Below, piece after piece: positions 13,513 through 61,436 of a stretch of 64,000 nt of DNA (positions are counted from its first letter, which is position 1; the number at the start of each line of letters is the position of its first letter). Location of the stretch: assembly GCA_964443135.1 (NCBI GenBank), contig CAYUBQ010000002.1, forward strand, positions 10,888 through 74,887. Reading direction: 5' to 3'. Both the position numbers and the translations under genes were made by a program. Under the pieces are notes generated by a model. The model did no database searches and was not told the origin of the DNA. It saw only the letters and a list, made by a program, of their open reading frames with translations. Source of the DNA: an uncultured Desulfobacterales bacterium. Its GTDB lineage: Bacteria > Desulfobacterota > DSM-4660 > Desulfatiglandales > HGW-15.

Positions 13513-13842
13513 TCAGTCCTTGTCCCTGCTCAGGTAGTCTCCGAGCAGGCCGCGGCTGTGCTCGTCCTCGTGGCAGTAGACGCACAGGTTCTCCCAGTTG
13601 GAGCCGTCCCGCGGGTTGTTGTGGTGGTTTCCGTCCTTGTGGTGGACGGTGAGGAGGTGGCGGTCGGCGTGATCGAACTCCCGCCCGCACTTGGCGCAGA
13701 TCAGGCCGTGGATCCGGAGCGACGCCTCGCGGTAGTCCACGGTTTTGGGGGCGGTCTCTCCGCGGAGCCTGCGCACCGCCTCGTCCACGTCCTCGGGTCG
13801 GATCCGCCTGGACCCCTTGCGCCTCGGCCGGTCATCCCTCAT
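13513..13842 (-). CDS. yajD: YajD-family HNH nuclease
   Basis: GLICAKCGREF...LTVHHKDGNHHNNPRDGSNWENLCVYCHEDEH, the YajD HNH signature. Confidence 0.85.
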   Translation of the reverse strand: MRDDRPRRKGSRRIRPEDVDEAVRRLRGETAPKTVDYREASLRIHGLICAKCGREFDHADRHLLTVHHKDGNHHNNPRDGSNWENLCVYCHEDEHSRGLLGDYLSRDKD

Positions 13843-31249: not shown

Positions 31250-31393
31250 CGGTCAGACGGCTCTTTTCTGATTCCGGAGGCAGAACATACGCCCAGGATT
31301 TGCCTTGACACACCGCACCCCGAGGGCGTGCAATGGGAGAAGCAACAGGCACCTGCGACAAACTGGTATCCTGCCTTCACTCGAGGACCGGCC

Positions 31394-32497
31394 ATGCAGA
31401 ACCCGCCCTCTCCGGATCCGATCCGATTTCTCCGGTTCACCATGGACAACCTGCCCATCGGCGTGCTCACCGTGGACGCGAGCAGAAGGGTGACCAGCTT
31501 CAACCCGCAGGCCGAGACCGTCACCGGGTACTCGAAGGAGGAGGTGCTGGGAAGGTTCTGCGGCGAGGTGCTCCAGGGCGGCATGTGCAAGGAACAGTGC
31601 CCGCTGGCGAGCGTGATCCGGAGGCGGGCCCCCATGGTCCAGCTGGAGACCACCATCCGGGACCGCCACGGCAGGACCATCCCGGTCCGTCTTCAGACCG
31701 CCGCGCTGCTCGACGACGACGGCCGGCTCATCGGCGGGGTGGAGACCTTCCAGGACATCACCTACATCAAGGGCCTCGAGCGCGACAAGGCCGCATTCGT
31801 CTCCATGGTCGCCCACGACATGAAGTCGTCGCTCACCGTCATCGGGGGGTTCGCCCGCAGGCTCAGCAAGCCGCGGGTCCGGAAGAACGAGGAGAAGCTG
31901 GGACGGTATCTGGAGATCGTCCTGAACGAGACGGAACGGCTCGAGTCCATGATCCGGGACTTCCTGGAGTTTTCCCGGCTCGAGACCGGATCGCTCAAAC
32001 TGGAGTTCCGCCCCGTGTCCCTGAACGAGGTGATCGAGCAGCTTGCGGCCACCTACCAGGTGCAGGCGGAGCAGCTCGGGATCCGGCTGGAGGTGGGCAC
32101 CGACCCGGAGCTGGGGTCCCTGACCGCCGACGCCGAGCGCCTGAGACGGGTCTTCAAGAACCTCCTGGACAACGCGCTCAAGTTCTCCGACCCCGGGGGG
32201 AGGGTGAGGATCACCACGCAGGACGCGGGCCCCTTCGTGCAGGTCCGCGTCGAGGACGAGGGGGTGGGGATCGAAGAGGCGGAGCTGCCCCACATCTTCG
32301 ACCCCTACTTCCGCGCGAACAACCGGCCCGAGGCGAGCGGTTTCGGCGTCGGCCTCGCCGCGGTCAAAGCGGTGGTGGAAGGGCACGGAGGGCGCGTCGA
32401 GGTGGAAAGCGAGCCGGGACGCGGGTCCGTATTCACCGTCCACCTGCCCAGGGTCCCGGCGCCGGAGGACGCCGCGGCGCAGCCGGCGCGCAGCTAG
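31394..32497 (+). CDS. cytoplasmic PAS-domain sensor histidine kinase
   Basis: PAS domain (LPIGVLTVDASRRVTSFNPQAETVTGYSKEEVLG) with a Cys-rich insert, H-box FVSMVAHDMKSSLT, and N/G boxes. Start at MQNPPSP (31394). Confidence 0.88.
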   Translation: MQNPPSPDPIRFLRFTMDNLPIGVLTVDASRRVTSFNPQAETVTGYSKEEVLGRFCGEVLQGGMCKEQCPLASVIRRRAPMVQLETTIRDRHGRTIPVRLQTAALLDDDGRLIGGVETFQDITYIKGLERDKAAFVSMVAHDMKSSLTVIGGFARRLSKPRVRKNEEKLGRYLEIVLNETERLESMIRDFLEFSRLETGSLKLEFRPVSLNEVIEQLAATYQVQAEQLGIRLEVGTDPELGSLTADAERLRRVFKNLLDNALKFSDPGGRVRITTQDAGPFVQVRVEDEGVGIEEAELPHIFDPYFRANNRPEASGFGVGLAAVKAVVEGHGGRVEVESEPGRGSVFTVHLPRVPAPEDAAAQPARS

Positions 32498-32931
32498 CCC
32501 CGGACCGACTTTTTCATGTAGGACTCCAGGGCCTCCTGGAGGGTGGCCGCCGCGAGGAACGCACAGTGCCGATCCTCTTCCGGAAGACCGCCCAGAATGC
32601 CGAGAATGGCCTCGCCGGAGATCTCCGTGACCTCGTCCGGGCTCTTTCCCAGGGCCAGCTCCGCGGCGAACGACCCGCAGACCGCGCTGGAGCCGCAACC
32701 GTCGGTCCGGTAGGCCGCCTCCGAGACGCGGTCCTCCCGGAGACGCAGGAAGATCTCCATGGTGTCCCCGCACGAACCGGTGAGCCGCCCGTACCCGTCC
32801 GGATTCTCCAGGGCGCCTTCGTATCGGGGGTTGCGCCACCGTTCGTAGGCCACCTCCCCGTAGTCCTGCCTGGCTTCCTCGTAGACCTGCTCCTGCAGGT
32901 CGCGAACAAACGCGTCGAAATCGTCGGCCAC
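32494..32931 (-). CDS. NifU/IscU N-terminal-domain Fe-S cluster scaffold-like protein
   Basis: GSCGDTMEIFL...DGCGSSAVCGS...LPEEDRHCAFLAAATL, the three-Cys IscU pattern. GTG start (complement of 32929-32931) with AAGGAGGA 8 nt upstream. Confidence 0.8.
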   Translation of the reverse strand: MADDFDAFVRDLQEQVYEEARQDYGEVAYERWRNPRYEGALENPDGYGRLTGSCGDTMEIFLRLREDRVSEAAYRTDGCGSSAVCGSFAAELALGKSPDEVTEISGEAILGILGGLPEEDRHCAFLAAATLQEALESYMKKSVRG

Positions 32932-33072
32932 CGTCCTGGTCCTCCTTGATCTGCAGCCGGCCCCGGGGGCCGGCGCCGGTCCTGATGACGATCCATGGTG
33001 CCTGATACTGTTTTGAACTGCAACGCAAATTGATACCATGAAACCGCTCTCGAAACGATCGTGAAACAGGTC

Positions 33073-33101
33073 TTGACAACCATGTGTATACGGTATACAA
33101 A
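33073..33101 (+). promoter_or_regulatory. TTGACA -35 box followed by a perfect 7-1-7 palindrome TGTATACgGTATACA (33085-33099) covering the -10 region: promoter plus operator candidate
   Basis: TTGACA at 33073-33078, with TATACA/TACAAA at spacers of 15-17 nt. The palindrome is exact. Confidence 0.45.
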
Positions 33102-33152
33102 AGCGGTTCTGCATCGCTCTTTACCGTGAAAATACCCCTCGGTGGGCCGGGC

Positions 33153-33222: not shown

Positions 33223-33343
33223 GAAAACCCCTGTTTTCATCAGCGGGGGTGACCGGACGCCGGTCATGGACGTTTGAACCGAAACCCCGCCCGTCTGGAC
33301 AGGCCCCGCATCCTGCCGCCTGCGCTTCCGGAGGTTCGTGCTC

Positions 33344-35131
33344 ATGCTCTTTGACCTGCTCCTGTTCGGCTCTCTGGGCATCTTCCTGCTGGGAACGGCC
33401 TGGAAAATGTTCCCCTGGTTCTCCCGGGGGATCGGACCGGGCTCCCGGGGGATCCCACGGTCCCGAAGGGTCCGCGCCGCCCTTCTCGGCGCCGCCCGGA
33501 CCGTCTTCAGCCGGAACGTTCTGACCGTCTTTCGCGTCGTCCTCGTGGACGGCCTTCTCCAGTGGAGGATCCTCAAGGAGGACCGCCTCCGCTGGGTCAT
33601 GCACTTCTCCGTCTTCGCCGGGTTCATCCTGCTTCTCCTGATGCACGCCCTGGACGACCTGATCACGGCGAACCTGTTCGAATCCTACTACAGCACCGTC
33701 AACCCCTGGTTCTTCCTGCGGGACCTGGCCGGCGTGCTCGTGCTCGCGGGGCTCGCGCTGGCCGTGCTCCGGCGGACCGTCTGGAAGGTCCCCCGCCTGA
33801 GGACCCGGGCGCCGGACGTGATCGCCCTCGCCTTCCTGGCCCTGATCGTGGTCTCCGGCTTTCTGCTCGAGGGCGCCAAGATGGGCTCACACGACGCCTA
33901 CCTGCGCATGGTGGAGGAGTGGGCGGACCCGGACGCCGTCGATGAGGTCCGGGCCCTGGAGAGCTACTGGATCCAGGAGCTCGGGCTCTACGCCACGCAC
34001 CTCTCCCCGCCGTTCTCCGAGGACCGGCTGGCCCAGGGCCGCGAGCTCCACGAGATGAACTGCGCCTTCTGCCACGCCCCGTCCCAGTGGGCCTTTGCGA
34101 GCTACGGGGCGAACCGGGCCATGGCGCCTGCCGCCTCTTTCCTGGACCGGGTGGACGCGACCCTCGTCTTCTGGCACATCCACATCCTCGCCTGCTTCGC
34201 GGGGCTCGCCTACCTGCCCTTCAGCAAGATGTTCCACGTCGTCGCCACCCCAATCGGTCTCGTGGTCAGCAGGCTCACGGACCGGGAGCGCTCCGACGCG
34301 GCCAACGTCGCCACCCGTCAGGCCGTGGAGCTGGACGCCTGCACCCAGTGCGGGACGTGCAGCCTGAGATGCTCCCAGGCGGGTGCGGCCATGGCCATGG
34401 GCAACCCCTACATCCTTCCCTCGGAGCGAATGGCCTGTCTTCGGCGGGCGGGCCTGGGAGGCCGTCTCGAGCCGGCCGAGCGGGAGGCGATCCGCCGGGG
34501 CGCCGTCATCTGCTCCAACTGCGACCGGTGCACGGTGGTCTGCCCGTCGGGCATCAACCTGAAGGAGCTCTGGGTCTCAGTGCGGGAGGAGCTGATCCAG
34601 CAGGGGGACCCCGAGCCCGCCCTGCTCTCGCCGTTTTCCCATCTTCGCGGCCTCCGGAGGGACGATCTGGAGGCGGTGACGGACTACGCCCGTCCCCTGA
34701 GCCGGGCCCTGCACGTCCTCGTCCCCAACGGGAAGGCCCGAGCGCCCGAGGTCGAGGCCCCGCCCCTGGACCTGACGGAGCAACCGGACATGCCGGTGGA
34801 CCCCGACCTGGAGTCGGGGCACTTCGCCGACTGCTTCGGCTGCCGGACCTGCACCTCCGTCTGCCCTGTGGTGGGCAACTACGAGGACCCCGAGCAGACC
34901 CTCGGGCTCCTGCCCCACCAGATCATGTACTGCCTGGCCCTCGGGATGCCGGCCATGGCTTCCCGGTCCCGCATGCTCTGGGACTGCGTCACCTGCTACC
35001 AGTGCGAGGAGCACTGCCCGCAGGGCGTGCGCATCACGGACATCCTCTACACGCTGAAGAATCGCGCCGTTCGGGTCGAGGCAGGCCGCGCTGCGCCTTC
35101 CCCGGCCGAGGAGCGGACCGGGCCGGCCTAG
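33344..35131 (+). CDS. fusion protein: NarI/HdrE/DsrM-like 5-TM cytochrome-b-type membrane domain (with a CXXCH loop) plus a cytoplasmic domain with four CxxCxxCxxxC iron-sulfur motifs (HdrC-like)
   Basis: TM helices with positive-inside loops and a terminal-helix motif LPFSKMFH. Cys motifs are CTQCGTCSLRC, CSNCDRCTVVCP, CFGCRTCTSVCP and CVTCYQCEEHCP. ATG 33344 preferred (GGAGG 9 nt upstream) over the track start at 33338. Confidence 0.8.
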   Translation: MLFDLLLFGSLGIFLLGTAWKMFPWFSRGIGPGSRGIPRSRRVRAALLGAARTVFSRNVLTVFRVVLVDGLLQWRILKEDRLRWVMHFSVFAGFILLLLMHALDDLITANLFESYYSTVNPWFFLRDLAGVLVLAGLALAVLRRTVWKVPRLRTRAPDVIALAFLALIVVSGFLLEGAKMGSHDAYLRMVEEWADPDAVDEVRALESYWIQELGLYATHLSPPFSEDRLAQGRELHEMNCAFCHAPSQWAFASYGANRAMAPAASFLDRVDATLVFWHIHILACFAGLAYLPFSKMFHVVATPIGLVVSRLTDRERSDAANVATRQAVELDACTQCGTCSLRCSQAGAAMAMGNPYILPSERMACLRRAGLGGRLEPAEREAIRRGAVICSNCDRCTVVCPSGINLKELWVSVREELIQQGDPEPALLSPFSHLRGLRRDDLEAVTDYARPLSRALHVLVPNGKARAPEVEAPPLDLTEQPDMPVDPDLESGHFADCFGCRTCTSVCPVVGNYEDPEQTLGLLPHQIMYCLALGMPAMASRSRMLWDCVTCYQCEEHCPQGVRITDILYTLKNRAVRVEAGRAAPSPAEERTGPA

Positions 35132-35186: not shown

Positions 35187-36020
35187 ATGAAGACCTATGC
35201 ACTCTACCTGGGCTGCAACATCCCCGCGCGGGTCCAGTCCTACGAAACGGCGTCCCGCGCGGTCCTGGAGAGGCTCGGGGTTCGGCTCCTCGACAGTCGG
35301 GAGTTCGCCTGCTGCGGATACCCGCTGAGGAACCTGGACCGGGGCGCCTATCTCCTCTCCGCCGCCCGCAACCTGGCCCTGGCCGGCCGCACGGGACACG
35401 ACATGCTGGTCCTGTGCAGCTGCTGCTTCGGCTCCCTCAAGGCCGCGCAGCACCAGCTCCGCCGTTACCCGGAAGCGCGCAGGGAGGCGGACCGGAGGCT
35501 CCGCCGGGAAGGTCTCCGTTACGACGGCGACATCGAGGTCAAGCACCTTCTGAGCGTCCTCCGGCACGACGTCGGGCTGGAGGCCCTGAAGACCCACATC
35601 AGACGTCCATTCGAAGACCTCAGGATCGGGGCGCACTACGGGTGCCACGTCCTTCGGCCCAGCCACGTCACGGAGTTCGACGACCCCGTCGCACCCACCC
35701 TGTTCGAGGCCCTCGTCGAGGTCACCGGGGCCCAGTGCGTCGAGTGGGACCCGCGGATGGACTGCTGCGGGGCGCCCCTGCTGGGCGTGAACGACGAGCT
35801 CAGCCTGGACCTGACGCGCGGCAAGCTGAGGAAGGCCGCCGAGGCCGGGGTGGACCACCTGTGCACGGCCTGCCCCTACTGCCAGCTTCAGTTCGAAACG
35901 GTCCAGCGGAAATGGATCGCGGGAAACGGAAGCGGCACACCGGCGGTGGCCTCCCTGGTCTACCCCGAGCTGCTGGCCCGCTGCATGGGCCTGGAAGACG
36001 AACGGTTGAAACGGCCATAA
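35187..36020 (+). CDS. hdrB: heterodisulfide reductase subunit B-like (two CCG domains)
   Basis: LGCNIP...ACCGYP...LCSCC and YGCHVL...DCCGAPLL...CTACPYC. Confidence 0.88.
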   Translation: MKTYALYLGCNIPARVQSYETASRAVLERLGVRLLDSREFACCGYPLRNLDRGAYLLSAARNLALAGRTGHDMLVLCSCCFGSLKAAQHQLRRYPEARREADRRLRREGLRYDGDIEVKHLLSVLRHDVGLEALKTHIRRPFEDLRIGAHYGCHVLRPSHVTEFDDPVAPTLFEALVEVTGAQCVEWDPRMDCCGAPLLGVNDELSLDLTRGKLRKAAEAGVDHLCTACPYCQLQFETVQRKWIAGNGSGTPAVASLVYPELLARCMGLEDERLKRP

Positions 36021-36074: not shown

Positions 36075-39000
36075 GTGAAACGCGAAGAAACAGGCGCGGT
36101 ACTGGTTGTTGGAGGGGGAATCACCGGAATGCAGTCGGCGCTGGACCTGGCCAACTCCGGTTTTTTCGTCTATCTCGCGGAGCGATCGAGCTCGATCGGG
36201 GGAATGATGTCCCAGCTGGACAAGACCTTCCCCACCAACGACTGTGCCATGTGAATCATCTCGCCCAAACTGGTCGAGGTCGGCCGGCACATCAACATCG
36301 AGCTGCTCACGCTCACCGAGGTCAAGGAGATCACCGGGGAGCAGGGGGACTTCCAGGTCCGCGTGGTCCGGCACCCCCGGTACGTGGACGTGGACAAGTG
36401 CATCGCCTGCGGCGCCTGCACCGAGAAGTGCCCCCGCAAGGTCCCGGACGAGTACAACGAGAGCCTGGTCCCCAGAAAGGCGATCTACGTGAAGTACGCC
36501 CAGGCCGTTCCCCTCAAGTACGCCATCGACCCGGAGCAGTGCATCAAGCTGACCCGGGGGAAGTGCGGGAACTGCGCCAAGGTGTGCCCCACCGGGGCGA
36601 TCGACTACGAGGACACGGAGAAGGAGAACGTCCTTCGGGTCGGCGCCGTGGTGCTCGCCGACGGATCGGAGACCTACGACCCCGGGGGGCACGACACCTA
36701 CGGCTACAGGAAGAACCCCGACGTGGTCACCAGCATCGAGTTCGAACGGATGCTCTCCGCCTCGGGTCCCAGCGGGGGACACCTGGTCCGCCCTTCGGAC
36801 GGGAAGGAGCCGTCCCGGATCGCCTGGCTCCAGTGCGTGGGATCCAGGGAGCCGGCCCTGGGAAACCGCGGCTACTGCTCCGGCGTCTGCTGCACCTACG
36901 CGGTCAAGGAGGCGGTGCTGGCCAAAGAGCACTGCGGGGGGGACCTGGACGCGGCCGTCTTCTACATCGACATCCGAACCACCGGAAAGGACTTCGAGCG
37001 CTACTACGAGCGCGCCAGGGAGGAGCAGGGGGTCCGCTTCGTCAAGGCCAGGATCTCGCACCTCGCCAGGCGGAACGGGTCGAACCTCATTCGCTACGTG
37101 GACGAAGCGGGCAAGCGGGTCGAAGAGCCTTTCGACATGGTGGTCCTCTCCGTAGGCCTCGGCGCGAACCGGAAGAGCGCCGAGCTGGCCGAGACCCTGG
37201 GCGTCCAGATGGACCCCTACCGGTTCGTGAGCACGAGCAGCTTCCACCCGGTTCGGACCTCGAGGCCCGGGATCTACGTCTGCGGCGCCCACCAGGCGCC
37301 CAAGGACATCCCCTCCTCCGTGGTGGACGCCAGCGCGGCCGTCGTCGAGGTGGCCGCCGATCTGGCCGACACGCGCTGGACGCTCACCCGGACCGCCGAG
37401 CTCCCCGAGGAGCGGGACGTGCGCGGCGCCCCCCCGCGGATCGGGGTGTTCGTCTGCTGCTGCGGCACCAACATCGCCGGGGTCGTGGACGTTCCTTCGG
37501 TCGTGGAGTACGCCCGGTCCCTGCCCGGGGTGGCCTACGCGGAGGAGAACCTGTTCAGCTGCTCCCAGGACACCCAGGACAAGATGACCCGGATGATCCG
37601 GGAAAAAGGGCTCAACCGGGTGGTGGTGGCCGCCTGCACGCCCAAGACCCACGAGCCGCTCTTTCAGGAGACTTTGACCAGCGCGGGCCTGAGCAAGTAT
37701 CTCTTCGAGATGACCAACATCCGCAACCAGTGCTCCTGGGTACACCGGGACCAGCCCGAGGCCGCCACGCAGAAGGCCAAGGAGCTGGTCGCCATGTCCG
37801 TGGCCAAGGCGAGCCGCCTCACCCCCCTGAGCGAGCCGGTCCTGGAGATCACCCCGACCGCCCTGGTCGTCGGGGGCGGCATCGCCGGCATGGAGGCGGC
37901 GAGGAGCCTCGCCAACCAGGGGTACCCCACCTACCTGGTCGATCGGAACCGGCGTCTCGGGGGGCAGGCCCTGACCCTTCACGAGACGTGGAGAGGGGAG
38001 TCGATCCAGGCCTATCTCTCCGAGCTGATCGAGGACGTCGAGCTGCACCCCGGGATCCAGATCTTCCTGAAGGCCGAGGTGGACGAGGTGGACGGGTTCG
38101 TCGGCAACTTCCGGACCATGATCCGCCAGGGCCGCGAGAGCCGGATGATCGAGCACGGCGTGACCATCGTGGCCACCGGCGCGCTCGAGTACAAGCCGCG
38201 CGAGCACCTCTACGGGGAGCACCCCAACGTGGTCACCGGACTGGAGCTCCAGGACCGGCTGATCCGGGAGGACCCCTCGCTTCGCGAAGCCCGGACCGCG
38301 GTGTTCCTCCAGTGCGTCGGGTCCCGCATCCCGGAACGCCCTTACTGCTCCAAGGTGTGCTGCACCCAGTCCATCAAGAGCGCGCTGGCCCTGAAGGGGA
38401 TCAACCCTTCCATGCGGATCTTCGTCGTCTACCGGGACATGCGGCCCTACGGGCTGAGGGAGGACCTGTACCGGAAGGCGAGGGAGGCGGGCATTATCTT
38501 CATCCGCTACAGGTCGGAGGAGGGCTTCGACGTGGTCTTGGAGGACGGGCGACTGCGGACGGCCTTCACGGACACCGGCCTGCACCGGAAGATGGAGATC
38601 CACCCGGACCTCCTGGTGCTGGCCTCCGCCGTGGTCCCGAGCGAGCAGTCGCGGCTCGCTCAGCAGTTGAAGATCTCCCGGAACGACGACGGGTTCTTTG
38701 CGGAGGCCCACGTCAAGCTTCGCCCGGTCGACTTTTCCACCGAAGGGGTCTTTGTCTGCGGGCTGAGCCACGCCCCCAAGCCCGTGGACGAAAGCATCGC
38801 CCAGGCCCAGGCTGCGGCGGCCAGGGCTGCGACCCTTCTTGCGGCCGGGCGGATCCCGGTGAGCGGAACGGTGGCGGCCGTGGATCCGGATCTGTGCAGC
38901 ATGTGCGGAGTATGCGCTTCCATCTGCCCCTACTCCGCTCCCGGCGTGGACGAAAAGACCGGCAGGATGAGCATCCAGAGCACCCTGTGCAAAGGCTGCG

Positions 39001-39089
39001 GGCTGTGCACAGCCTCCTGCCGGTCCGGGGCGATCCGGTTGAACGGCTTTGACAACAACCAGATCCTGGCGATGATCGAGCAGGTGTGA
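36075..39089 (+). CDS. hdrA: tandem HdrA-type FAD/Fe-S flavoprotein (QmoA-like module fused to a full HdrA/QmoB-like module), with in-frame TGA at 36252-36254 read as selenocysteine
   Basis: GTG 36075 (GGAG upstream) opens the same frame as track ORF 36363..39089. N-terminus is [19 protein letters not shown]...[20 protein letters not shown] second FAD fold is [19 protein letters not shown]. Also present are YCSGVCC and YCSKVCC motifs and four ferredoxin-type CxxCxxCxxxCP motifs. Confidence 0.75.
36258..36280 (+). promoter_or_regulatory. candidate bacterial SECIS hairpin downstream of the in-frame UGA
   Basis: AUCUCGCC / CAAACU loop / GGUCGAGGU, an 8-bp stem with one G-U pair and one bulged U, beginning 4 nt after the UGA. 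Confidence 0.35.
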
Positions 39090-39128: not shown

Positions 39129-39584
39129 ATGATCGAGATCATCCAGCTCAAGAGCATCCGCATGCTCGGCAATCTCACGGACGAGATGCTCGAGAAGATC
39201 CAGCCCGTCACCACCCTCGTGGATTTCCAGGCGGGGGAGTACATCTTCCGGGAGGGGGAGTACGCGGAGTACCTCTACTCGATCCTGGACGGGGAGGTGG
39301 GGCTGGAGACCGAGAAGAACCCTTCCAAACGCATTCTCGTCACCAAGATCAGCCGGTGCATGACCCTGGGCTTCTCGGCCCTCCTGGACACCGAGTACCG
39401 AAAGTACGTCGGGTTCGCCAAGGCGATCACCGACGTGAAGCTCTTCGCCTGGAAGGGCGTGGAGCTGGAGAAGCTCTTCGTCAACGACTACGAGATGGGG
39501 TTCCTGATCATGCGGCGCATCGCAAACACCATCCAGAAGCGACTCCAGATCACCAAGACCCAGCTCGTGGACATCTACCAGTAG
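39129..39584 (+). CDS. cyclic-nucleotide-binding (cNMP/Crp-type beta-barrel) domain protein without an HTH
   Basis: FQAGEYIFREGEYAEYLYSILDGEVGLE...RCMTLGFSALL, the cNMP-binding fold. At 151 aa there is no DNA-binding domain. Confidence 0.75.
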   Translation: MIEIIQLKSIRMLGNLTDEMLEKIQPVTTLVDFQAGEYIFREGEYAEYLYSILDGEVGLETEKNPSKRILVTKISRCMTLGFSALLDTEYRKYVGFAKAITDVKLFAWKGVELEKLFVNDYEMGFLIMRRIANTIQKRLQITKTQLVDIYQ

Positions 39585-48668: not shown

Positions 48669-51268
48669 GCCCGGAGAATGCCGGGAAGGAGCTGGACCCG
48701 GCCACGGAACCCACCGGATCCAAAGCCGCTTCCGGCTACAACCGCCTCTCCCTGATGCGGTTCCGGGCGTGGCAGATTCTCCTCGTGCTGCTGGTGCTGG
48801 CCGGGGTCTCCTTTCTCCTGTTCCCGCGCGAGCGGAGGCTCGTCGACTTTCACCTGGAGCGGGGCCGGACCCGGGACGCCCTGGTCGAGCTCGACCGCAT
48901 GCTGAGGAAGAGGCCGACCGACCCGGCGCTCCTGGAGCTCGCGGCCGAGACCCGCTTTCGAGCCGGCGACATGGAGGAGGCGATCCGCCTGCAGGAGCAG
49001 GCCGCCCGGCTCTCCCCGGGGGACAAGAGCGCCTGGGAACGGCTCGCCCGGTTCCACGAGTGGAGCCGGAACCCGGCGGAGGCCCTCAGGGTCTACGAGC
49101 GCATCGCCTCCCTGGAGCCCGCGGACCGGGCGGCCCGGGAGAAGATCATCGAGTACGCCCGCTACCTGGGGCGCACCGACCTGGAGGCTGCGGCCGTGGC
49201 GAGCCTCCTGGAGCACGGCGAGGAGCCGGGCCCCGGGGAGGAGCCCCTCCTTCGGGAGCTGACCCGGACCCTGAAGGCCCTGGCCGGGGAGCGAACAGCC
49301 GGTGGGGAGGATCCCCTGCTCGACGAGCTTCTGGTCCGGCTCCACCTGGTGCGATCGGACCTCCTCGAGGAGCGGGGCGAGACCGGGATCTCCGAGGCGG
49401 CCCGGACGGACGCGGCGGAGGCCGCCCTCCACTTCTTCCTGGTGAACGGCCGGCTGGACGACGGCCGAGCCTTCGGCCGGCGTCTGGACCGGAGTCTCCA
49501 GGAGGGCGTGGCCTTCCGCCGGACCTGGGTGGACCTCCTCCGCTGGAACGGGCTCCCGGAGCGTGCCCTGGCCCTGCTGGACGAACTCCTCCAGGAGGAG
49601 CCCGGGAACCGGGAGCTCCTGCGCCTCGCCGGGGAGATCGCCGCTCGGACCGGAAACGTCCGGCGGCTCGCCCTCTCGCTCGAGGAGCAGCTTCGGCTCG
49701 ACCCGGAGTCCGAGAGGCTTCGGGCCTCCCTGGCCGAGCTCTACCGGTTCTCCGGCGATCCCGGCCGGGCCGTTTCCCTGTACGAGGCCCTCCACCGGGA
49801 TCACCCCCGGAACCGGGCCTACCTGGACGCCATGCTTGCAGCGGCCGAGGACGCCGCCGACCCCGCGATCAAGGTGCGGGCCGCGGATTTGGCGGCCGGT
49901 GTGGATCCCCGGGACGCCGACCTCCTCGAACGGCGGGCGGAGCTCTACCTGGCCGCGGAGAAGCCGGGAAAGGCCTGGCCCCTCCTGAGCGTTCTGGCCG
50001 GGCGGGCCGGGGGGGACGAGAAGGCGGTCCGGAGGATGCTCGAGGTGGCCGGGTACACGGACGATCCGGGGACCCTGAAGAAGGCCCTGTCCCAGGCCCT
50101 CTCCCTGAGGCCGACGGACCGGGACCTGCGCCTGGAGGCTGCGGACGCCTTCCTCTGGCTGGAGGGGCCGGAGCGGGCCTACCGGGCCCAGCTCGAGCTC
50201 GTGAAACAGGGCGGCGCCACGCGAGAGGACGTGTTCCGTCTGATCGAGCTGGCCCTGTTCACGAACCGGCCCGAGAACGAGCGGGAGGCCGTGACGCTGG
50301 CCGCCCGGCGGCTCCGGGGACCGGAAGTGCGCGTCCTTCGCGACCGCGCCGCGCAGCTCCCGGAGGGCCTCTCGGACCAAGAAATGCTCGCGGCCGTTCG
50401 GACCTACCTGGATCGGCACCCCGGGGACACCGCCTTCCGGGACCGCCTGATCCGGCTCTACATCGAGTCCGGACGCCCGGGCCGGGCCGCGCCCCTCCTG
50501 GCCGACCGGTCCGAACGGTCCCCCGGCGACCTTCAAAAGGCCCTGGACGCGGGGGAGGCCTATCTCCAGGCGGACCGGCTGAAGCAGGGCCTTCCCTACT
50601 TCGAACGGGCCCTGGCCCTCGACCCGGGGAACGCGGCTCTCCAGAGACGGCTGGTGACCTACCACGGCTGGCTCGGGATGCGGGAGGAGCAGATCGCCGG
50701 GCTGATCCGGCTCGAGGAAGAGGGCCTCCTGGAGCCCGGGGAGCGGACCCGGCTGGCCGGGGCCCTCCTGGAACGGGGAGAAGGGGAACGCGCCCTGGAG
50801 ATCCTCCGGCCTGTGGAGGACCGGGACCCCCTGCCGAAGGAGGGAGGGATCCTCCTGGCCGCGGCCTACGACGCCGCCGGGCAGCGGGAGCGGGCCCTCG
50901 CCGTTTACGAGAGGCTCGCGCGGGACCACCGGGACGACCCGGCCCTCCTGGCCGAGCTGGGGGACCGGGCCCTCTGGCTGGACCGGCTGCCCGCCGCCCT
51001 GGCATTCTACGAGGCGGCCCTGCGGCTCGAGCCGAAGAACCTCCGCGCGCTCAAAGGAAGCGGCCAGATCTACGCCTGGAACAACAACCCGGAGCGGGCC
51101 ATCGCCCGGTTCGAGGCCTACAACCGGCTCGAGCCGGACGACTTCGAGGTGCGGTACCAGCTGGGGGAGCTCTACTTCGCGAACGAGCGGAAAGGTGCGG
51201 CCTTCAAGGAGTACCGGAAGACCCTGGGCCTGATCGACCGGAGGAAAAAGGCCGTCACTCCTCCTTGA
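48662..51268 (+). CDS. membrane-anchored multi-TPR protein (PelB N-terminal TPR-scaffold analogue)
   Basis: One N-terminal TM (WQILLVLLVLAGVSFLLF) followed by about 800 aa of TPR hairpins. ATG 48662 overlaps the deacetylase stop (ATGGTGA). It is the in-frame tail of track ORF 46877..51268. Confidence 0.7.
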   Translation: MVSPENAGKELDPATEPTGSKAASGYNRLSLMRFRAWQILLVLLVLAGVSFLLFPRERRLVDFHLERGRTRDALVELDRMLRKRPTDPALLELAAETRFRAGDMEEAIRLQEQAARLSPGDKSAWERLARFHEWSRNPAEALRVYERIASLEPADRAAREKIIEYARYLGRTDLEAAAVASLLEHGEEPGPGEEPLLRELTRTLKALAGERTAGGEDPLLDELLVRLHLVRSDLLEERGETGISEAARTDAAEAALHFFLVNGRLDDGRAFGRRLDRSLQEGVAFRRTWVDLLRWNGLPERALALLDELLQEEPGNRELLRLAGEIAARTGNVRRLALSLEEQLRLDPESERLRASLAELYRFSGDPGRAVSLYEALHRDHPRNRAYLDAMLAAAEDAADPAIKVRAADLAAGVDPRDADLLERRAELYLAAEKPGKAWPLLSVLAGRAGGDEKAVRRMLEVAGYTDDPGTLKKALSQALSLRPTDRDLRLEAADAFLWLEGPERAYRAQLELVKQGGATREDVFRLIELALFTNRPENEREAVTLAARRLRGPEVRVLRDRAAQLPEGLSDQEMLAAVRTYLDRHPGDTAFRDRLIRLYIESGRPGRAAPLLADRSERSPGDLQKALDAGEAYLQADRLKQGLPYFERALALDPGNAALQRRLVTYHGWLGMREEQIAGLIRLEEEGLLEPGERTRLAGALLERGEGERALEILRPVEDRDPLPKEGGILLAAAYDAAGQRERALAVYERLARDHRDDPALLAELGDRALWLDRLPAALAFYEAALRLEPKNLRALKGSGQIYAWNNNPERAIARFEAYNRLEPDDFEVRYQLGELYFANERKGAAFKEYRKTLGLIDRRKKAVTPP

Positions 51269-52277
51269 CCTTCGCCTCGAAGTGCTCGAAGGCGTCGACG
51301 ATGTCCAGATAGACGCCGTCGAACCCCGCGTCGACGATCCGGTCCAGGGCGGACGCCTCCCCGCCCATCAGGATGCGCCGCCACGCCTCCATCCAGTACT
51401 TCACCTTGTAGTTGCCCGGCCAGTCCGGGTTCTCCTCCCCGAGCCAGGGCGGGGGGGAGCTCTTCCACTCCGGCTTCCAGTAGGGCCGGTACTCCTCGGC
51501 CTCGCCGATGCTCATGTAGGCCAGCACGAAGCGGTTTCCCCCGCACGCCTTCTGCCGGAGCGCCGCGACCTCCCGGCGCGAGAAGGGGACGTCGCCGTGG
51601 AAGAAAGGATCGGTGACGACCATGTCGTACCGGGTCTCCCGCACGGCGTCCACGAAGGCGTCCCGGTCGGTGTAGCTGCACATGTTCAGGAGGTAGAGGA
51701 AGTTCTCGGCCTCCGCCGGCGAGGAAAGGGGGCGGCAGTGGTGTCGAAACGGGCGGGCCGGGTGGGCGGGAATGCGGTCCAGGGCCCGGCTGGTCGCGGC
51801 GAAGCCGATGTATCCCCGCCCGCTGTTGAGCCGGTAGGAGCGCTCGACCTGCTCCCGGCTCCGGCAGTAGTCCGTCACCAGGACCAGAAGGCCGCTTTGC
51901 TGCGCCACCGCCAGAAGCCCGTTCAGCCGGCGCCGGACCGCCTCCGGCGTGGGTCGGCCCAAGCCGCCGTACCCGAAGAACAGGCTCTCCTGGCCCACGC
52001 CGTCGACGGCCGCCACGTACCGGGCCGACACCCGGTCCCCGGGGTCCCCGCCCTCGGTCAGGAGCTGGAGCCCGTTCTGGGGCACCACGAGGAACCCGGG
52101 CCGCTGCTCCCGGGCGTAGGCGCCGATGCGCACCACCAGGTCCCGCATCTCCGCGCGGTAGTCGCGGGGCCTGCTGCCCTCGGGCTCGTCCTTACGCGGG
52201 GCCTCGCGCGTGCAGCCCCCCAGGAGGAGCAGGGAGAGAAACAGGACACAGCTCGTGGGGAAAGCGATCGCTCGCAT
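51255..52277 (-). CDS. MJ1477/TM1410-family (GH114-like) putative glycoside hydrolase lipoprotein
   Basis: Lipobox LLLLGGC. YMSIGEAEEYRPYW...WPGNYKVKYW...GFDGVYLDIVDAFE. Last gene of the minus-strand pel operon. Confidence 0.78.
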   Translation of the reverse strand: MRAIAFPTSCVLFLSLLLLGGCTREAPRKDEPEGSRPRDYRAEMRDLVVRIGAYAREQRPGFLVVPQNGLQLLTEGGDPGDRVSARYVAAVDGVGQESLFFGYGGLGRPTPEAVRRRLNGLLAVAQQSGLLVLVTDYCRSREQVERSYRLNSGRGYIGFAATSRALDRIPAHPARPFRHHCRPLSSPAEAENFLYLLNMCSYTDRDAFVDAVRETRYDMVVTDPFFHGDVPFSRREVAALRQKACGGNRFVLAYMSIGEAEEYRPYWKPEWKSSPPPWLGEENPDWPGNYKVKYWMEAWRRILMGGEASALDRIVDAGFDGVYLDIVDAFEHFEAKVKEE

Positions 52278-52365
52278 GGTTCACGGTCCTTGGGGTGGTC
52301 TTGTCCGGGGAACGTATGGTTTCGTCATCCCCGCGTGTGGATCCTGTCCTTTTTGACCCTCGAGG

Positions 52366-53757
52366 TCAACCTGTTTCGGCGCTGCCCTGCACACGCAGGT
52401 CCGAGGCCCGTCGAAACACCTGGTACTCCAGGCCTCCCACGGTCCGGTTCACGAGGAAGAAACCGGCCGCAGCGGCCGTCAAGGAGGCGGCCAGGAAGCC
52501 GGTCCCGTGGAATCGCCAGCCCGCCTCGATGGAGAGCAGGGTGAAGACGGCGTTCAGCAGGCAGAACAGCCCGTTCAGCCTCAGCAGGAGGCCGTACTCG
52601 TCGAGGTACTGGATGATGAGAAAGTAGAAGAAGTAGAGGGAGAAGAAGATGGTGCCGGTCAGCAGGTAGTGGAACACGAAGGGGTTGGACCACGGGATGG
52701 GGACGATGCCGATGTAGACCAGGAAGAGGACGAGCATGCAGGCCCCGCCGTAGAACAGGAACAGGGAGGAGGAGGTCTGGGCGATCCCGCCGAACAGCTT
52801 CTCCTTCTCCACGGCCAGCTCCCGAAAGGGGAAGTTGTTCGAGAGCTTGAAGATGAACCGCTCGTAAGGGCCGTTGATGCTCCTCTTGATGCCCTTGTAG
52901 ATGATCAGGGAGCCGACCATCATGATGGTCAGGGCCACGAAGAACGGAAAGTCGTACTCCCCGTAGAAGTGAAACACCCCGTCCACGGACTTCCCGGTGG
53001 CCGGGTGAAACCAGAAGAGGATCTTGTCCACCCAGAACCCGAACATGAACAGGAATGCGGACAGACCGATCCGCCCGGCCTGGGCCCGTTTCAGGAAGGC
53101 GTCGTCCAGGCGGACCTCCGCGCGGAGGTAGAGCTTTACCACGTAGGAGTACCCGCCCGCCGCCGGGATCGCCACGCCGATGGAGAAGAAGAGGAGCAGG
53201 GCCTGGGTCTCCGTCATGCGGGTGGCCCCGAAGAGGATCAGGGTGGTCCCCATGCCGAGCCCGAACAGCTTCAGGAGCAGACGCTCGCGGCGCACCGAGC
53301 TGAGGACCGTGCCGATGCACCAGAACAGGCTCAGAACGGCGGTGAGACCGATGAAGGTGATCTTGAGGTTCACGTCGATGGAGGAGAACGGCACCACCAG
53401 CACGGCGGCGAGCAAAAGGGCCAGCACGGTCACCAGGATGGTCAGGACCATGAGGCTGTTGACGATGTCGTGAAACGTCCCCAGGTAAACCTTGTCCGCC
53501 ATGTGGCGGGTGAACAGGGTGTGAAAGGGGGAGGTGAGGACGAGAGAGAGGGCGGTCGCATAGGTGACGAGGAGGTAAAAGAGCACGGGAGCGCGGCTCG
53601 TCATCAGGTGAACGGTGACGCCCATCACGGCCAGGCAGAAGATGGTGAGAAACCACGCGCCCACCGCCTCGAAGGAGTCCAGCGACTCCTCGAGGAGGAG
53701 CCTGGTCATGGAGGGCCGGCGCTTCAGCCGCTCAACCAGCCGTACGATATCGCCCAT
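52366..53757 (-). CDS. pelG: PelG-like polytopic membrane protein (Pel exopolysaccharide export/polymerisation component)
   Basis: About 12 TM helices, about 460 aa, directly downstream of pelF. The assignment rests mainly on size, topology and conserved gene order. Confidence 0.65.
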   Translation of the reverse strand: MGDIVRLVERLKRRPSMTRLLLEESLDSFEAVGAWFLTIFCLAVMGVTVHLMTSRAPVLFYLLVTYATALSLVLTSPFHTLFTRHMADKVYLGTFHDIVNSLMVLTILVTVLALLLAAVLVVPFSSIDVNLKITFIGLTAVLSLFWCIGTVLSSVRRERLLLKLFGLGMGTTLILFGATRMTETQALLLFFSIGVAIPAAGGYSYVVKLYLRAEVRLDDAFLKRAQAGRIGLSAFLFMFGFWVDKILFWFHPATGKSVDGVFHFYGEYDFPFFVALTIMMVGSLIIYKGIKRSINGPYERFIFKLSNNFPFRELAVEKEKLFGGIAQTSSSLFLFYGGACMLVLFLVYIGIVPIPWSNPFVFHYLLTGTIFFSLYFFYFLIIQYLDEYGLLLRLNGLFCLLNAVFTLLSIEAGWRFHGTGFLAASLTAAAAGFFLVNRTVGGLEYQVFRRASDLRVQGSAETG

Positions 53758-55210
53758 GCATGAGCTCCCGGTAGAGGTCCCGGTACCGCTTCAGGACCAG
53801 GTCTTCGCCGTATCGGTTCTCGATCCGGCGGATGCCGTTCTCCGCCATGCGATCGGCTGCGGTCTCGTCCCGGAGCACGGCGAGGGCGGCCTCCGCGATC
53901 CCCTCGGCGTCCATGACGCGGCGCACCGAGCCCGCCTCTCCGATCCCGTCCCCTTCCCCGAGGAGGAGCTCGCGACAGGCGCCCACGTCGGTGGCCACCA
54001 CGGGGAGGCCGCTCGCCATGGCCTCCATGACGGCCAGGGGCATGGCCTCCTTGACGCTGGTGAGGAGGAGGACGTCCATCTCCCGGTAGTAGGGGATCAC
54101 GTCGGCGGGGCCGGTGAAGGTGAGGGTCTCACCCAGACCGAGCATCTTCACCAGGTCCCTGCACTCCTGGTAGTAGCCGGGCTGGTCGTCGGTGGGGCCG
54201 ACGGCGAGGGCTCGGACGTCCGGCAGGGCCTGCCGGATGAGTGCCACCACCTGGATGAAGGTCTTGATGTCCTTGACGGCGTCCACCCGCCCGACGAACC
54301 CCACGGTCGGCGGCCGGGTCCTGCACCGCTCCCGTCTCGCCTCCAGGAACCGCGGGATGTCGATCCCGTTCGGGATCACCTGGATGCGCTCCGGGTCCGC
54401 GCCGTACTCCTCCTCCAGCCTGCGGTTCCCCTCGAACAGGGTGACGATCCGGTCGCAGGCGTTGTACTGCCACAGGCAGAGGGCGGTGAAGCTGTCGATC
54501 CACATCTCCTTCAGGTAGGCGTCGTCCAGCCACTCGCTCTTGAGCAGCTCCATCTCCCGCTCCTGGAGGTAGATGCCGTGCTCCGTGATCAGGCCGGCCC
54601 GGTCGTCGAGCACGGCCTTGAGGCAGGTCACCAGGCCCCCGTAGCCCGTCCCCGGGGAGTGATAGACCGCGGCCTCCGGGATCCGGGGCAAAATCGTGAG
54701 GAGGCGGTAGAGGATCAGGTGGATGTTTCGAACGTTGTAGAAGTACTTCAGGAACCCCGCGTCCCCCCGGAACTCCTCGTAGAGGCGGGTGAGCAGGGAG
54801 AACGCGGGCTCGTCCTGGAAGAAGTTCCGAAAAACGCCGGGGGAGAGCTCGAAGATCACCTCGCGGAGGGTCTCGATGCTCCCGTCGGAGAGCCTCCCCT
54901 CCTTCCACTCCGTCATCAGGCGGTAAAGCCCTTCGGAGAGGGCGGCCCATCGTTTCCGGGAGATTTTCAGGGGCGCGGACGCCTCGATCTCGGTGCAGTC
55001 GAAAATGTCGAACTCCTGGTACGACACGACGTTTTCCGGGAGCCGGTATCTCCGATCCTCCGCCTTCTTCTCCTCGGCGACGAGGGCCACCACGGCGAAC
55101 GAGAGCTCCTCGAGGTTCTCCATGAGCCACTGGAGCCACGAGGAGACCCCGCCCGTGACGTAGGGGTAGCTTCCCTCTACAACCAGGCAGATGTCAGCAC
55201 TCTTCGCCAT
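53732..55210 (-). CDS. pelF: PelF-type GT4 glycosyltransferase
   Basis: N-terminal ICLVVEGSYPYVTGGVSSWLQWL motif as I recall for PelF proteins, plus the GT4 C-terminal E-x7-E region (SVKEAMPLAVMEAMASGLPVVATDVG). Start at MAKSAD (complement of 55208-55210). Confidence 0.82.
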   Translation of the reverse strand: MAKSADICLVVEGSYPYVTGGVSSWLQWLMENLEELSFAVVALVAEEKKAEDRRYRLPENVVSYQEFDIFDCTEIEASAPLKISRKRWAALSEGLYRLMTEWKEGRLSDGSIETLREVIFELSPGVFRNFFQDEPAFSLLTRLYEEFRGDAGFLKYFYNVRNIHLILYRLLTILPRIPEAAVYHSPGTGYGGLVTCLKAVLDDRAGLITEHGIYLQEREMELLKSEWLDDAYLKEMWIDSFTALCLWQYNACDRIVTLFEGNRRLEEEYGADPERIQVIPNGIDIPRFLEARRERCRTRPPTVGFVGRVDAVKDIKTFIQVVALIRQALPDVRALAVGPTDDQPGYYQECRDLVKMLGLGETLTFTGPADVIPYYREMDVLLLTSVKEAMPLAVMEAMASGLPVVATDVGACRELLLGEGDGIGEAGSVRRVMDAEGIAEAALAVLRDETAADRMAENGIRRIENRYGEDLVLKRYRDLYRELMHGRYRTAG

Positions 55211-56190
55211 GCGCTTGCCGCCTCTTTGACGCGGTCCGGGATGAACACCCCGCCCCCCGATTCGATGAGCAGGTAGAGGTCCTGGAACGTGTCGTAGTTC
55301 CTGCTTCGGAACGCCAGCTCGAACTCGTAGCTGATCCACTTGGGGAAGTAGTAGTCGCCCGTTGCCCGGGCCTGCCGGTAGATCATGTCCGCCTCCTCGA
55401 CCCGGTCCGCCTCGAGCAGGTAGCGGACGGCGAAGAGGGCGTCGTCCTCGGTCTTGCCCCGGTGAAAGGCCCGGATGGCGCAGTCGCAGGCCTTGGAGGC
55501 GTAGAACGGCTTCATCACCGGATCGGCCAGATCGAGGTAGCTGATCTCATGGTACAGGTTGGCCAGGTGGACCAGGTCCGAGGGGCCCGTCTCGGGCGAG
55601 GCCTCCAGCTGGTTGATCTCGTGGAGGATCTTGTCCATCTTCTTGTTCAGGACGTCGATGGCCATGAGCACGACGCTCTGGTGCGGGCTCAGCCGGACGA
55701 TGTACTTCAGGAGGCCCGACTTGGTGGCGGACCAGTCCATGTCCCCGATGAGGCCGACCATCTTCAGCCCCTGGCTTCTCGTCAGCCCCCGGATGAGCAG
55801 GGCCTCGGAAACGGGCATGGTGCGGCCCTCGAACGACCTCTGGAGGACCAGAAGGACGTCCTGGTTGACCTTGTGAAACGACTCGGACCGGACCGGGTGG
55901 ATCGGGTAGAACCGCAGGAAGAGGCAGAAGAAGAGGGCCGAGGCCGGCCCGATGACCGGAATGGCGGAGACGACCACCAGAAACGCGAGGAACCCGCGGT
56001 TCATCACACGCTTTCGGAGCATCCTGTCGGTCCCCATCAGGAGGCCGTTGATCAGCACGGTCAGCCCGACGGCCGTGGCGTGGGAAAGGAAGAACCCCGC
56101 CAGCTCGGTGTGCCCCGAAATGCCTCCCAGGAGGAAGTAGGCCGAGGAAAGCTCCGTGACGGTCCAGTAGACATAGAGCTTGTACTTCAC
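55177..56190 (-). CDS. pelE: PelE-like inner-membrane protein with C-terminal helical (TPR-like) domain
   Basis: GTG start in a GTGA overlap with the pelD stop. N-terminal TM helices followed by a helical repeat region. Position between pelD and pelF. Confidence 0.6.
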   Translation of the reverse strand: MKYKLYVYWTVTELSSAYFLLGGISGHTELAGFFLSHATAVGLTVLINGLLMGTDRMLRKRVMNRGFLAFLVVVSAIPVIGPASALFFCLFLRFYPIHPVRSESFHKVNQDVLLVLQRSFEGRTMPVSEALLIRGLTRSQGLKMVGLIGDMDWSATKSGLLKYIVRLSPHQSVVLMAIDVLNKKMDKILHEINQLEASPETGPSDLVHLANLYHEISYLDLADPVMKPFYASKACDCAIRAFHRGKTEDDALFAVRYLLEADRVEEADMIYRQARATGDYYFPKWISYEFELAFRSRNYDTFQDLYLLIESGGGVFIPDRVKEAASAWRRVLTSAWL

Positions 56191-61237: not shown

Positions 61238-61436
61238 GGAAATCCCGGCGGAAGGAGGTGCCCCGGAAAGCCTCGTTCGATCCAAAACCTAATGGTTTTC
61301 TTCCGTGATTGTCAACGAATTCAGCTTGCAACCGAATCGGGTCGAGCCTCCGGTTTCCCCGCCTTGTCAAACCCGCCGCGATCTTCTAGGGTGGACGGAG
61401 TCGAACGCCCGCCCCGGGACGACGGAGGAAAGAGCC

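Follow-up and report, generated by a model that had tools for sequence, protein, structure and literature searches.

A conserved candidate haem c site within the NarI-type membrane subunit of an Hdr-like gene cluster from an uncultured Desulfobacterales bacterium

Does a CXXCH motif found in the outer loop of a NarI-type membrane protein bind a c-type haem, and to which other redox centres would such a haem be connected? This question is raised by a 64,000-nucleotide stretch of DNA from an uncultured Desulfobacterales bacterium (contig CAYUBQ010000002.1 of assembly GCA_964443135.1; the whole stretch is referred to as the window). It harbors a 597-aa open reading frame (ORF; 33338..35131, + strand) for a polytopic membrane protein, here termed the membrane subunit, which is followed by genes for HdrB-like and HdrA-like proteins. 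The listed start of the ORF is a GTG at 33338, whereas the N-termini of homologues match the third codon, which makes ATG 33344 the likely true start; residue numbers nevertheless refer to the 597-aa ORF from 33338. In the original prediction, which was made from the sequence alone, the membrane subunit was proposed to combine a NarI-type cytochrome b, a haem c attachment site in a periplasmic loop and a fused HdrC-like domain.

The motif is encoded by nucleotides 34061-34075 (tgc gcc ttc tgc cac), which read in frame as C-A-F-C-H (residues 242-246) within the peptide ...LAQGRELHEMNCAFCHAPSQW... and lie inside the loop between transmembrane helices (TM) 4 and 5, so that position, frame and peptide all agree with what had been proposed. 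Based on the amino-acid composition of the window's genes, only ~0.002 CXXCH motifs are expected by chance per 600 residues, and by this estimate a chance origin is excluded. The only other CXXCH among the likely genes of the window is a CVYCH in a 109-aa HNH endonuclease (13513-13842), where it belongs to the HNH zinc/active-site region and is no haem site. Conservation was assessed by a homologue search of 5.8 billion proteins that gave 2305 matches, the best 120 of which (48-95% identity) were checked. All of these 120 have C-x-x-C-H at the same position, and the x-x residues vary freely (AF, EF, AY, MD, VD, AG, AE, LD, IS, QS and others). A hidden Markov model of the loop was then used to decide which sequences cover the site in a set of 270 homologues that included representatives at 50% clustering. 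The motif was present in each of the 227 site-covering sequences, and a second search added 111 further sequences, again all with the motif, which brings the total to 338/338, down to ~29% identity. Even in distant paralogous architectures, CXXCH is invariant. Database sequences without the motif are mostly partial fragments, frameshifted reads (P0190, P0238, P0265) or chimeric joins to HdrB (P0229, P0252); exceptions are the short-loop relatives P0256 and P0258 as well as the loop-deleted P0180. For the membrane half, an alignment of 70 diverse members (down to 29% identity) shows His103, Met191, Trp211, Cys242, Cys245, His246, His282 and His300 to be invariant, with His89 being retained in >90%. 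The motif thus is conserved among orthologues. At the sequence level, the motif is a genuine and highly conserved feature, and its earlier interpretation as a haem c attachment site is supported.

The TM4-TM5 loop comprises ~94 residues and is acidic (15 D+E vs 7 K+R), in line with the acidic loop of about 90 residues described before. Alignment with P0256 and P0258, both of which end after TM5, revealed that ~60 residues from Met191 to just past CXXCH are absent from these two proteins, while the segment downstream of CXXCH and TM5 are retained. Judging by this alignment, the CXXCH segment is an insert and more than a lengthened loop. All five residues that are invariant within the loop, i.e. 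Met191, Trp211, Cys242, Cys245 and His246, fall within the insert. P0256 and P0258 also lack the second TM2 histidine (His103 is replaced by Asp or Gly) and hence display a three-His pattern, whereas every insert-bearing member has four histidines. This suggests that the gain of the putative c haem and the gain of a bis-His distal b haem went together. The insert itself resembles c-type cytochromes: when a profile of the loop was compared with all PDB sequences, nearly all of the 60 matches listed were c-type cytochromes, including the haem subunit of flavocytochrome c (3vrd_A, E 7.7e-6), CcoP (E 2e-5 to 2e-4), actinobacterial QcrC and cytochrome c1. The alignments fall at the helix G-x-x-(L/I/V)-(H/N)-x-x-x-C-x-x-C-H. 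A plausible candidate for the distal ligand of a haem bound at this site is Met191, which is invariant in the 70 diverse sequences and in the loop alignment; a conserved distal residue of the kind sought for such a site is thereby available. Downstream of CXXCH within the loop, the alignment contains no invariant Met or His.

The insert is embedded in a NarI-type cytochrome b scaffold, as had been anticipated. Pfam PF02665 (NarI / Nitrate_red_gam) matches the membrane subunit with 29.8 bits, above the gathering cut-off of 22.9 (E 6e-7), five TM segments are predicted by hydropathy, in agreement with the helices of an AlphaFold2 (AF2) model and with the charge bias, and His89, His103, His282 and His300 are invariant in an alignment of 121 sequences. 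The family profile matches E. coli NarI chains (E 1e-7 to 4e-7) over NarI residues 170-218. This segment holds His187 and His205, which share the 18-residue spacing of His282 and His300. The closest solved structure is EtfD/EMO of M. smegmatis (9OJN), which aligns over 515 columns at 17% identity (E 1.5e-6); HdrC chains and NarI come next. In the AF2 model of the full protein (predicted local distance difference test score (pLDDT) 91, predicted template modelling score 0.86), the loop is folded into five short helices (pLDDT 84-98). The mean net charge (K+R minus D+E) of 70 homologues amounts to +5.5 for loop 1-2, -1.6 for loop 2-3, +4.1 for loop 3-4 and -7.8 for loop 4-5. The topology of NarI is established as N-out, C-in. 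Taken together, the charge bias, the necessarily cytoplasmic location of the iron-sulfur (FeS) domains, HdrB and HdrA, and the alignment of the TM5 histidines to NarI place the TM4-TM5 loop in the periplasm, i.e. on the side of cytochrome c maturation. The topology proposed originally, with a periplasmic loop and cytoplasmic FeS domains, is hence corroborated.

Following TM5, Pfam detects two Fer4_8-type dicluster domains at approximately residues 327-410 and 497-564. Their sixteen cysteines, arranged as four CX2CX2CX3C motifs, are all invariant in the 121-sequence alignment and, going by these motifs, are enough for four [4Fe-4S] clusters. The family profile matches HdrC chains in the PDB with E 1e-19, while TIGR03290 (HdrC) reaches 49 bits against a cut-off of 160; by this measure, the second dicluster domain is HdrC-like and no equivalog. 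NCBIfam gave sub-threshold matches only, to QmoC, HdrC, GlpC and SdhB-type FeS proteins. The expected fusion to an HdrC-like dicluster domain is therefore present, yet two such domains are found instead of the single one that had been described. Pfam finds no CCG domain in the membrane subunit, HdrB being encoded by a separate gene.

Based on these features, the membrane subunit probably (with a likelihood of roughly three in four) is a polytopic cytochrome whose single chain would hold three haems together with four [4Fe-4S] clusters and act as a transmembrane wire. In this model, the NarI-type five-helix bundle would hold two b haems, ligated by His89/His300 on the cytoplasmic side and by His103/His282 on the periplasmic side. 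The insert would carry the c haem via thioether bonds to Cys242 and Cys245, with His246 as proximal and Met191 probably as distal ligand. Covalent haem binding, Met ligation, the partners and the direction of electron flow are inferred from sequence. The two HdrC-like domains following TM5, each with two cubane clusters, would be located in the cytoplasm and could pass electrons to two separate subunits, an HdrB-like protein, whose CCG domains may harbor non-cubane clusters for thiol/disulfide chemistry, and a selenocysteine-containing (Sec) HdrA-like flavoprotein with flavin adenine dinucleotide (FAD). The resulting chain would run c haem – b haem (distal) – b haem (proximal) – four FeS clusters – HdrB/HdrA. 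At its inner end would be a cytoplasmic Hdr-type module for thiol/disulfide and flavin chemistry, and at its outer end it would be connected on the periplasmic side to soluble c-type cytochromes and/or to a quinone site close to the distal haem. The membrane subunit would thereby do the same job as Tmc, Hmc and DsrMKJOP, in which a separate cytochrome c subunit is present.

Several observations weigh against this assignment. First, Met191 is located 51 residues upstream of CXXCH and not downstream, where class I cytochromes c have their distal ligand. Second, no Pfam cytochrome c family matches the membrane subunit at E <= 0.01. Third, a model of the loop alone (AF2, pLDDT 78) gave no Foldseek match in the PDB (all E > 4), and the loop thus has no recognisable cytochrome c fold. 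The resemblance to a class I site that was part of the original prediction therefore holds for the helix and CXXCH segment, which aligns with c-type cytochromes, but not for the loop as a whole. Fourth, the single 503-aa sequence P0180, which may be a natural variant without c haem or an assembly artefact, has the whole loop cleanly deleted and retains the four histidines and both FeS domains; the core wire may hence manage without the c haem. Finally, neither ccm or ccs genes nor WWD-motif proteins were detected within the 64 kb of the window or in 16 retrieved flanking regions. In one relative, tetrahaem and octahaem cytochromes c encoded beside the operon imply that this lineage matures c-type cytochromes.

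Among the alternatives, the one that survives best accepts the c haem and assigns it another function. It could be an internal partner of the distal b haem that tunes or extends the quinone-side centre and replaces the 'twin' haem b of EMO, which is also predicted for HdrE, without any docking of cytochromes. EtfD/EMO is the closest solved relative of the membrane subunit, and EMO of S. aciditrophicus has a third haem at the distal, periplasmic side and only three His ligands, a three-His pattern that was likewise reported for HdrE (10.64898/2026.08.18.745454). The short-loop P0256 and P0258 fit this picture, given that they lack both the insert and the second TM2 histidine, while the insert-bearing proteins have all four. 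In addition, some members occur together with donors that normally feed electrons to quinone, namely with glpA/glpB-like genes (locus L011) and, in the case of fused variants, with etfAB and sHdr-type genes, and this association favours a quinone-side role in those contexts. Yet, the twin haem of EMO is situated under TM helices II-III and not in the TM4-TM5 loop (10.64898/2026.08.18.745454), and the exposed acidic loop would also fit a docking surface for basic cytochromes. An exclusively internal role of the c haem is considered rather unlikely, although it is the most serious competitor.

According to a second and considerably less probable alternative, CXXCH binds no covalent haem at all and constitutes a periplasmic redox dithiol/disulfide or a metal site (Zn, Fe or Cu) with a conserved histidine. 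CXXC motifs serve both disulfide exchange and metal binding, and the lack of maturation genes in the window and of a Pfam cytochrome c match would be in keeping with such a function. This proposal has to contend with the histidine directly after the second cysteine, which is invariant in 338/338 sequences, with the preceding G-x-x-(L/I/V)-(H/N)-x-x-x-C helix, whose matches are specifically to c-type cytochromes (nearly all of the 60 listed PDB matches), with the invariant Met191 that is available as a sixth ligand, and with the setting of the motif in a haem protein from lineages rich in c-type cytochromes. An inverted topology or a cytoplasmic loop, in which the cysteines would serve as extra FeS or regulatory ligands near the ferredoxin domains, is very improbable, since it is backed by the general cysteine richness of the protein only and is opposed by the odd number of five TM helices in combination with necessarily cytoplasmic FeS domains, HdrB and HdrA, by the enrichment of K+R in loops 1-2 and 3-4 and of D+E in loops 2-3 and 4-5 (70 homologues), and by homology to NarI and EtfD, both of solved topology.

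The coordinates of the membrane subunit, its parts and the downstream genes are compiled in Table 1.

Table 1. Positions of the membrane subunit, its predicted redox sites and the co-encoded subunits in the window.
Feature	Position	Strand	Basis
Membrane subunit: NarI-type five-TM dihaem-b domain with putative c-haem insert, then two HdrC-like 2x[4Fe-4S] domains	33344..35131	+	Pfam, NCBIfam, alignment
CXXCH (Cys242-Ala-Phe-Cys245-His246), proposed haem c attachment and proximal His	34061..34075	+	Kept in 338/338 site-covering homologues
Insert, aa 191-250 (~60 residues), inside the TM4-TM5 loop	33908..34087	+	Alignment with short-loop relatives
Met191, candidate sixth (distal) c-haem ligand (inferred role)	33908..33910	+	Invariant in 70 diverse sequences and loop alignment
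TM4-TM5 loop, aa 181-274: acidic, helical, predicted periplasmic	33878..34159	+	AF2 model, charge count
TM2 with His89 (cytoplasmic side) and His103 (periplasmic side), predicted haem b ligands	33602..33646	+	Conservation
TM5 with His282 and His300, predicted haem b ligands	34181..34237	+	Invariant; profile alignment to NarI 170-218
First helical dicluster ferredoxin domain, Cys335/338/341/345 and Cys392/395/398/402	34316..34567	+	Pfam, NCBIfam, alignment
Second dicluster domain, the true HdrC-like one, Cys499/502/505/509 and Cys550/553/556/560	34826..35029	+	Pfam, NCBIfam; PDB HdrC match
HdrB-like subunit with two CCG domains	35187..36020	+	Pfam, NCBIfam; synteny in all related loci
HdrA-like flavoprotein, ~1005 aa, in-frame TGA (selenocysteine) at 36252-36254	36075..39089	+	Pfam, NCBIfam, translation
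151-aa protein with only a cNMP-binding domain, last gene of the cluster	39129..39584	+	Synteny

The cytoplasmic partners are encoded directly downstream. The listed ORF for the HdrA-like protein begins at 36363, i.e. 96 codons late. Translation of the upstream region uncovered an FAD-binding N-terminus with an in-frame TGA, by which hdrA extends over 36075..39089 and is a selenoprotein gene. The TGA occupies the canonical Cys position and is present in 13 of 13 related loci, and public gene calls cut hdrA in two. Folding of the RNA after the hdrA UGA yielded a small hairpin that is no better than shuffles (z = -0.29). The gene order membrane subunit – HdrB – Sec-HdrA is found in 12 loci, down to ~52% identity, and in nine of these the gene for the cyclic nucleotide monophosphate (cNMP)-binding protein comes next. 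The latter may be a regulator or a subunit; a gene of this type is also located near etfAB in locus L014. The scores of the HdrA-, HdrB- and HdrC-like proteins all remain below the cut-offs of the methanogen equivalogs, and the HdrABC-type genes are hence Hdr-like and encode no CoB-CoM reductase. Directly upstream of the membrane subunit gene, the window encodes a PAS histidine kinase on the + strand (31328..32497) and, on the - strand, a NifU-like FeS scaffold protein (32494..33114). Both genes are syntenic in L001, L003 and L006, and a NifU-like gene also occurs near the operon in L002 and L005.

In comparison to known systems, the membrane subunit is related most closely to EMO/EtfD/HdrF, which likewise consist of one chain with an N-terminal NarI-like five-TM cytochrome b followed by a helical 2x[4Fe-4S] HdrC-like domain. 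The similarity extends to fused relatives of ~709 aa that carry two CCG domains in cis and adjoin etfAB, as well as to the third haem that EMO from S. aciditrophicus has on the periplasmic side. However, all haems of EMO/EtfD are b haems, with three conserved histidines, and the CCG domains are part of the chain, whereas the protein from the window has four histidines, CXXCH in a 60-residue insert, a second HdrC-like domain and, as partners, a separate HdrB and an HdrA. NarI, DsrM, HmeC, TmcC and HdrE share the five TM helices, the N-out/C-in topology, the His pair in TM2, the TM5 His pair spaced 18 residues apart and the function as a membrane anchor for a cytoplasmic FeS module, but each of them is a separate subunit that lacks a c haem and has only a short connection between TM4 and TM5. 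An identity as TmcC was rejected (18 bits vs a cut-off of 240). TmcABCD, HmcABCDEF and DsrMKJOP combine one or more periplasmic c-type haems with a membrane cytochrome b and a cytoplasmic HdrD/HdrB-type CCG protein that is thought to act on DsrC. In contrast to the single c haem proposed here for the loop of the b-type subunit, these complexes employ a separate multihaem cytochrome c subunit (TmcA, HmcA or DsrJ) and contain no HdrA. In QmoABC, QmoC joins an HdrC-like dicluster domain to a cytochrome b of the NarI/HdrE type and works with the HdrA-like flavoproteins QmoA and QmoB; this system differs in the reversed order of QmoC (FeS domain before the TM helices), in having no c haem and in the absence of HdrB from Qmo. 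QmoC (NF038018) was also rejected as an identity, as the match reaches 64 bits against a cut-off of 300, covers the FeS part alone and has the opposite domain order.

To our knowledge, all described NarI-type anchors (Hdr-like, Dsr, Tmc, Hme and EMO) contain b haems only and rely on a separate cytochrome c subunit for contact with the periplasm. No description of a c-haem insert in a NarI-like domain was found in the searchable literature. The accounts of HdrF from Desulfobacterium autotrophicum, of EMO/EtfD, of the type II sHdr system (PMC11094781) and of Desulfatiglans mention no c-haem site in the NarI-like domain. The nearest description concerns HotSeep-1, for which an HdrA encoded beside a CCG-domain protein said to bind haem c was proposed to form a cytochrome c oxidoreductase that feeds DsrC or ferredoxin (Murali et al. 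2023, PMC10553843). The fused variants discussed below agree with this account, in which neither a NarI-type scaffold nor the position of the haem site is described. The haem c/CCG protein of the HotSeep-1 pair (AMM42179/AMM42180) may be a fused member of the family. The putative c-haem insert is new, while NarI/EMO-type membrane anchors of Hdr-like systems are already known.

The membrane subunit belongs to a large family, nearly all members of which stem from uncultured Desulfobacterota. Close relatives all originate from metagenome-assembled genomes (MAGs) of uncultured Desulfobacterales or Desulfatiglandales. When only the membrane domain was compared, without a word index, with representatives clustered at 50%, 676 relatives were retrieved, 115 of them at E <= 1e-30. 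The original prediction had regarded such a single-polypeptide arrangement as unusual. With a family of this size it is no one-off.

The genomic contexts of these relatives are diverse. In a betaproteobacterial MAG (L011, 6958-12546), a 34%-identical copy that has kept the motif as CASCH lies between genes for GlpA/GlpB-like FAD enzymes on its upstream side and an HdrB-like gene on its downstream side, and HdrA is absent. This set looks like a split, membrane-anchored equivalent of GlpC. Fused variants of ~709 aa (L014, 8001-10124; L015/L016, 8001-10130) comprise the NarI domain with the putative c-haem insert, one HdrC-like domain and two CCG domains. In Desulfobacterota-like contigs, they adjoin etfAB, tusA, a gene for a lipoate-binding protein (GCV_H), dsrE/dsrH as well as lipoate ligase/assembly and radical S-adenosylmethionine enzyme genes. 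The fused relatives P0130, P0143 and P0205 have the domain content of EMO, i.e. NarI-like TM helices, an HdrC-like domain and two CCG domains, and the clusters of the fused variants are reminiscent of the sHdr-etfAB-emo clusters of type II reported by Dahl's group (PMC11094781). Counting the Sec-HdrA/HdrB, GlpAB-like and EtfAB contexts, the membrane module with the insert has been combined with at least three different cytoplasmic partners. In the relative with multihaem cytochromes c mentioned above (L013, 4602-8882), the operon is directly preceded by genes for two cytochromes c, one tetrahaem and one octahaem, as well as for a Fer4_11 FeS protein and an NrfD-like membrane protein. Together they make up a Qrc/Nhc-like module that faces the periplasm and is a possible redox partner.

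Two further gene sets were noted elsewhere in the window. A Pel-type exopolysaccharide set at 51255-55339, entirely on the - strand, consists of a GH114-like hydrolase (51255..52277), a PelG-like exporter (52366..53757) and a DUF3492/GT4 glycosyltransferase (53732..55339). A signalling protein of 1146 aa is encoded at 57845-61285 (- strand) and has the domain order FHA - GAF - PAS x3 - SpoIIE (PP2C phosphatase) - HATPase_c_2.

If the proposed wiring is correct, one 65-kDa polypeptide would contain seven redox centres that span periplasm, membrane and cytoplasm. The insert would also define a recognisable subfamily of at least 115 clusters at 50% identity, which so far have been annotated only as '4Fe-4S dicluster domain-containing protein'. 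The same module would then be reused with Sec-HdrA/HdrB, with GlpAB-like dehydrogenases and with EtfAB in sHdr-type sulfur-oxidation clusters. This bears on the evolution of the third haem in EMO/HdrE-type proteins and on the way in which flavin and thiol chemistry in the cytoplasm of anaerobes is linked to periplasmic cytochromes and to quinones. More tentatively, and with odds that we judge to be somewhat against it, the membrane subunit might be the membrane arm of an undescribed, membrane-anchored HdrABC-type complex that is widespread in uncultured Desulfobacterota. In such a complex, a His/Met-ligated c haem at the outer face would be connected through two b haems, four cubane clusters and HdrC to the flavin site of Sec-HdrA, and the insert would represent an alternative to the 'twin haem b' of EMO/HdrE as a route to a three-haem NarI-type module. 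Flavin-based electron bifurcation or confurcation might thereby have a direct link to menaquinone and/or the pool of periplasmic cytochromes c, and hence to the proton-motive force.

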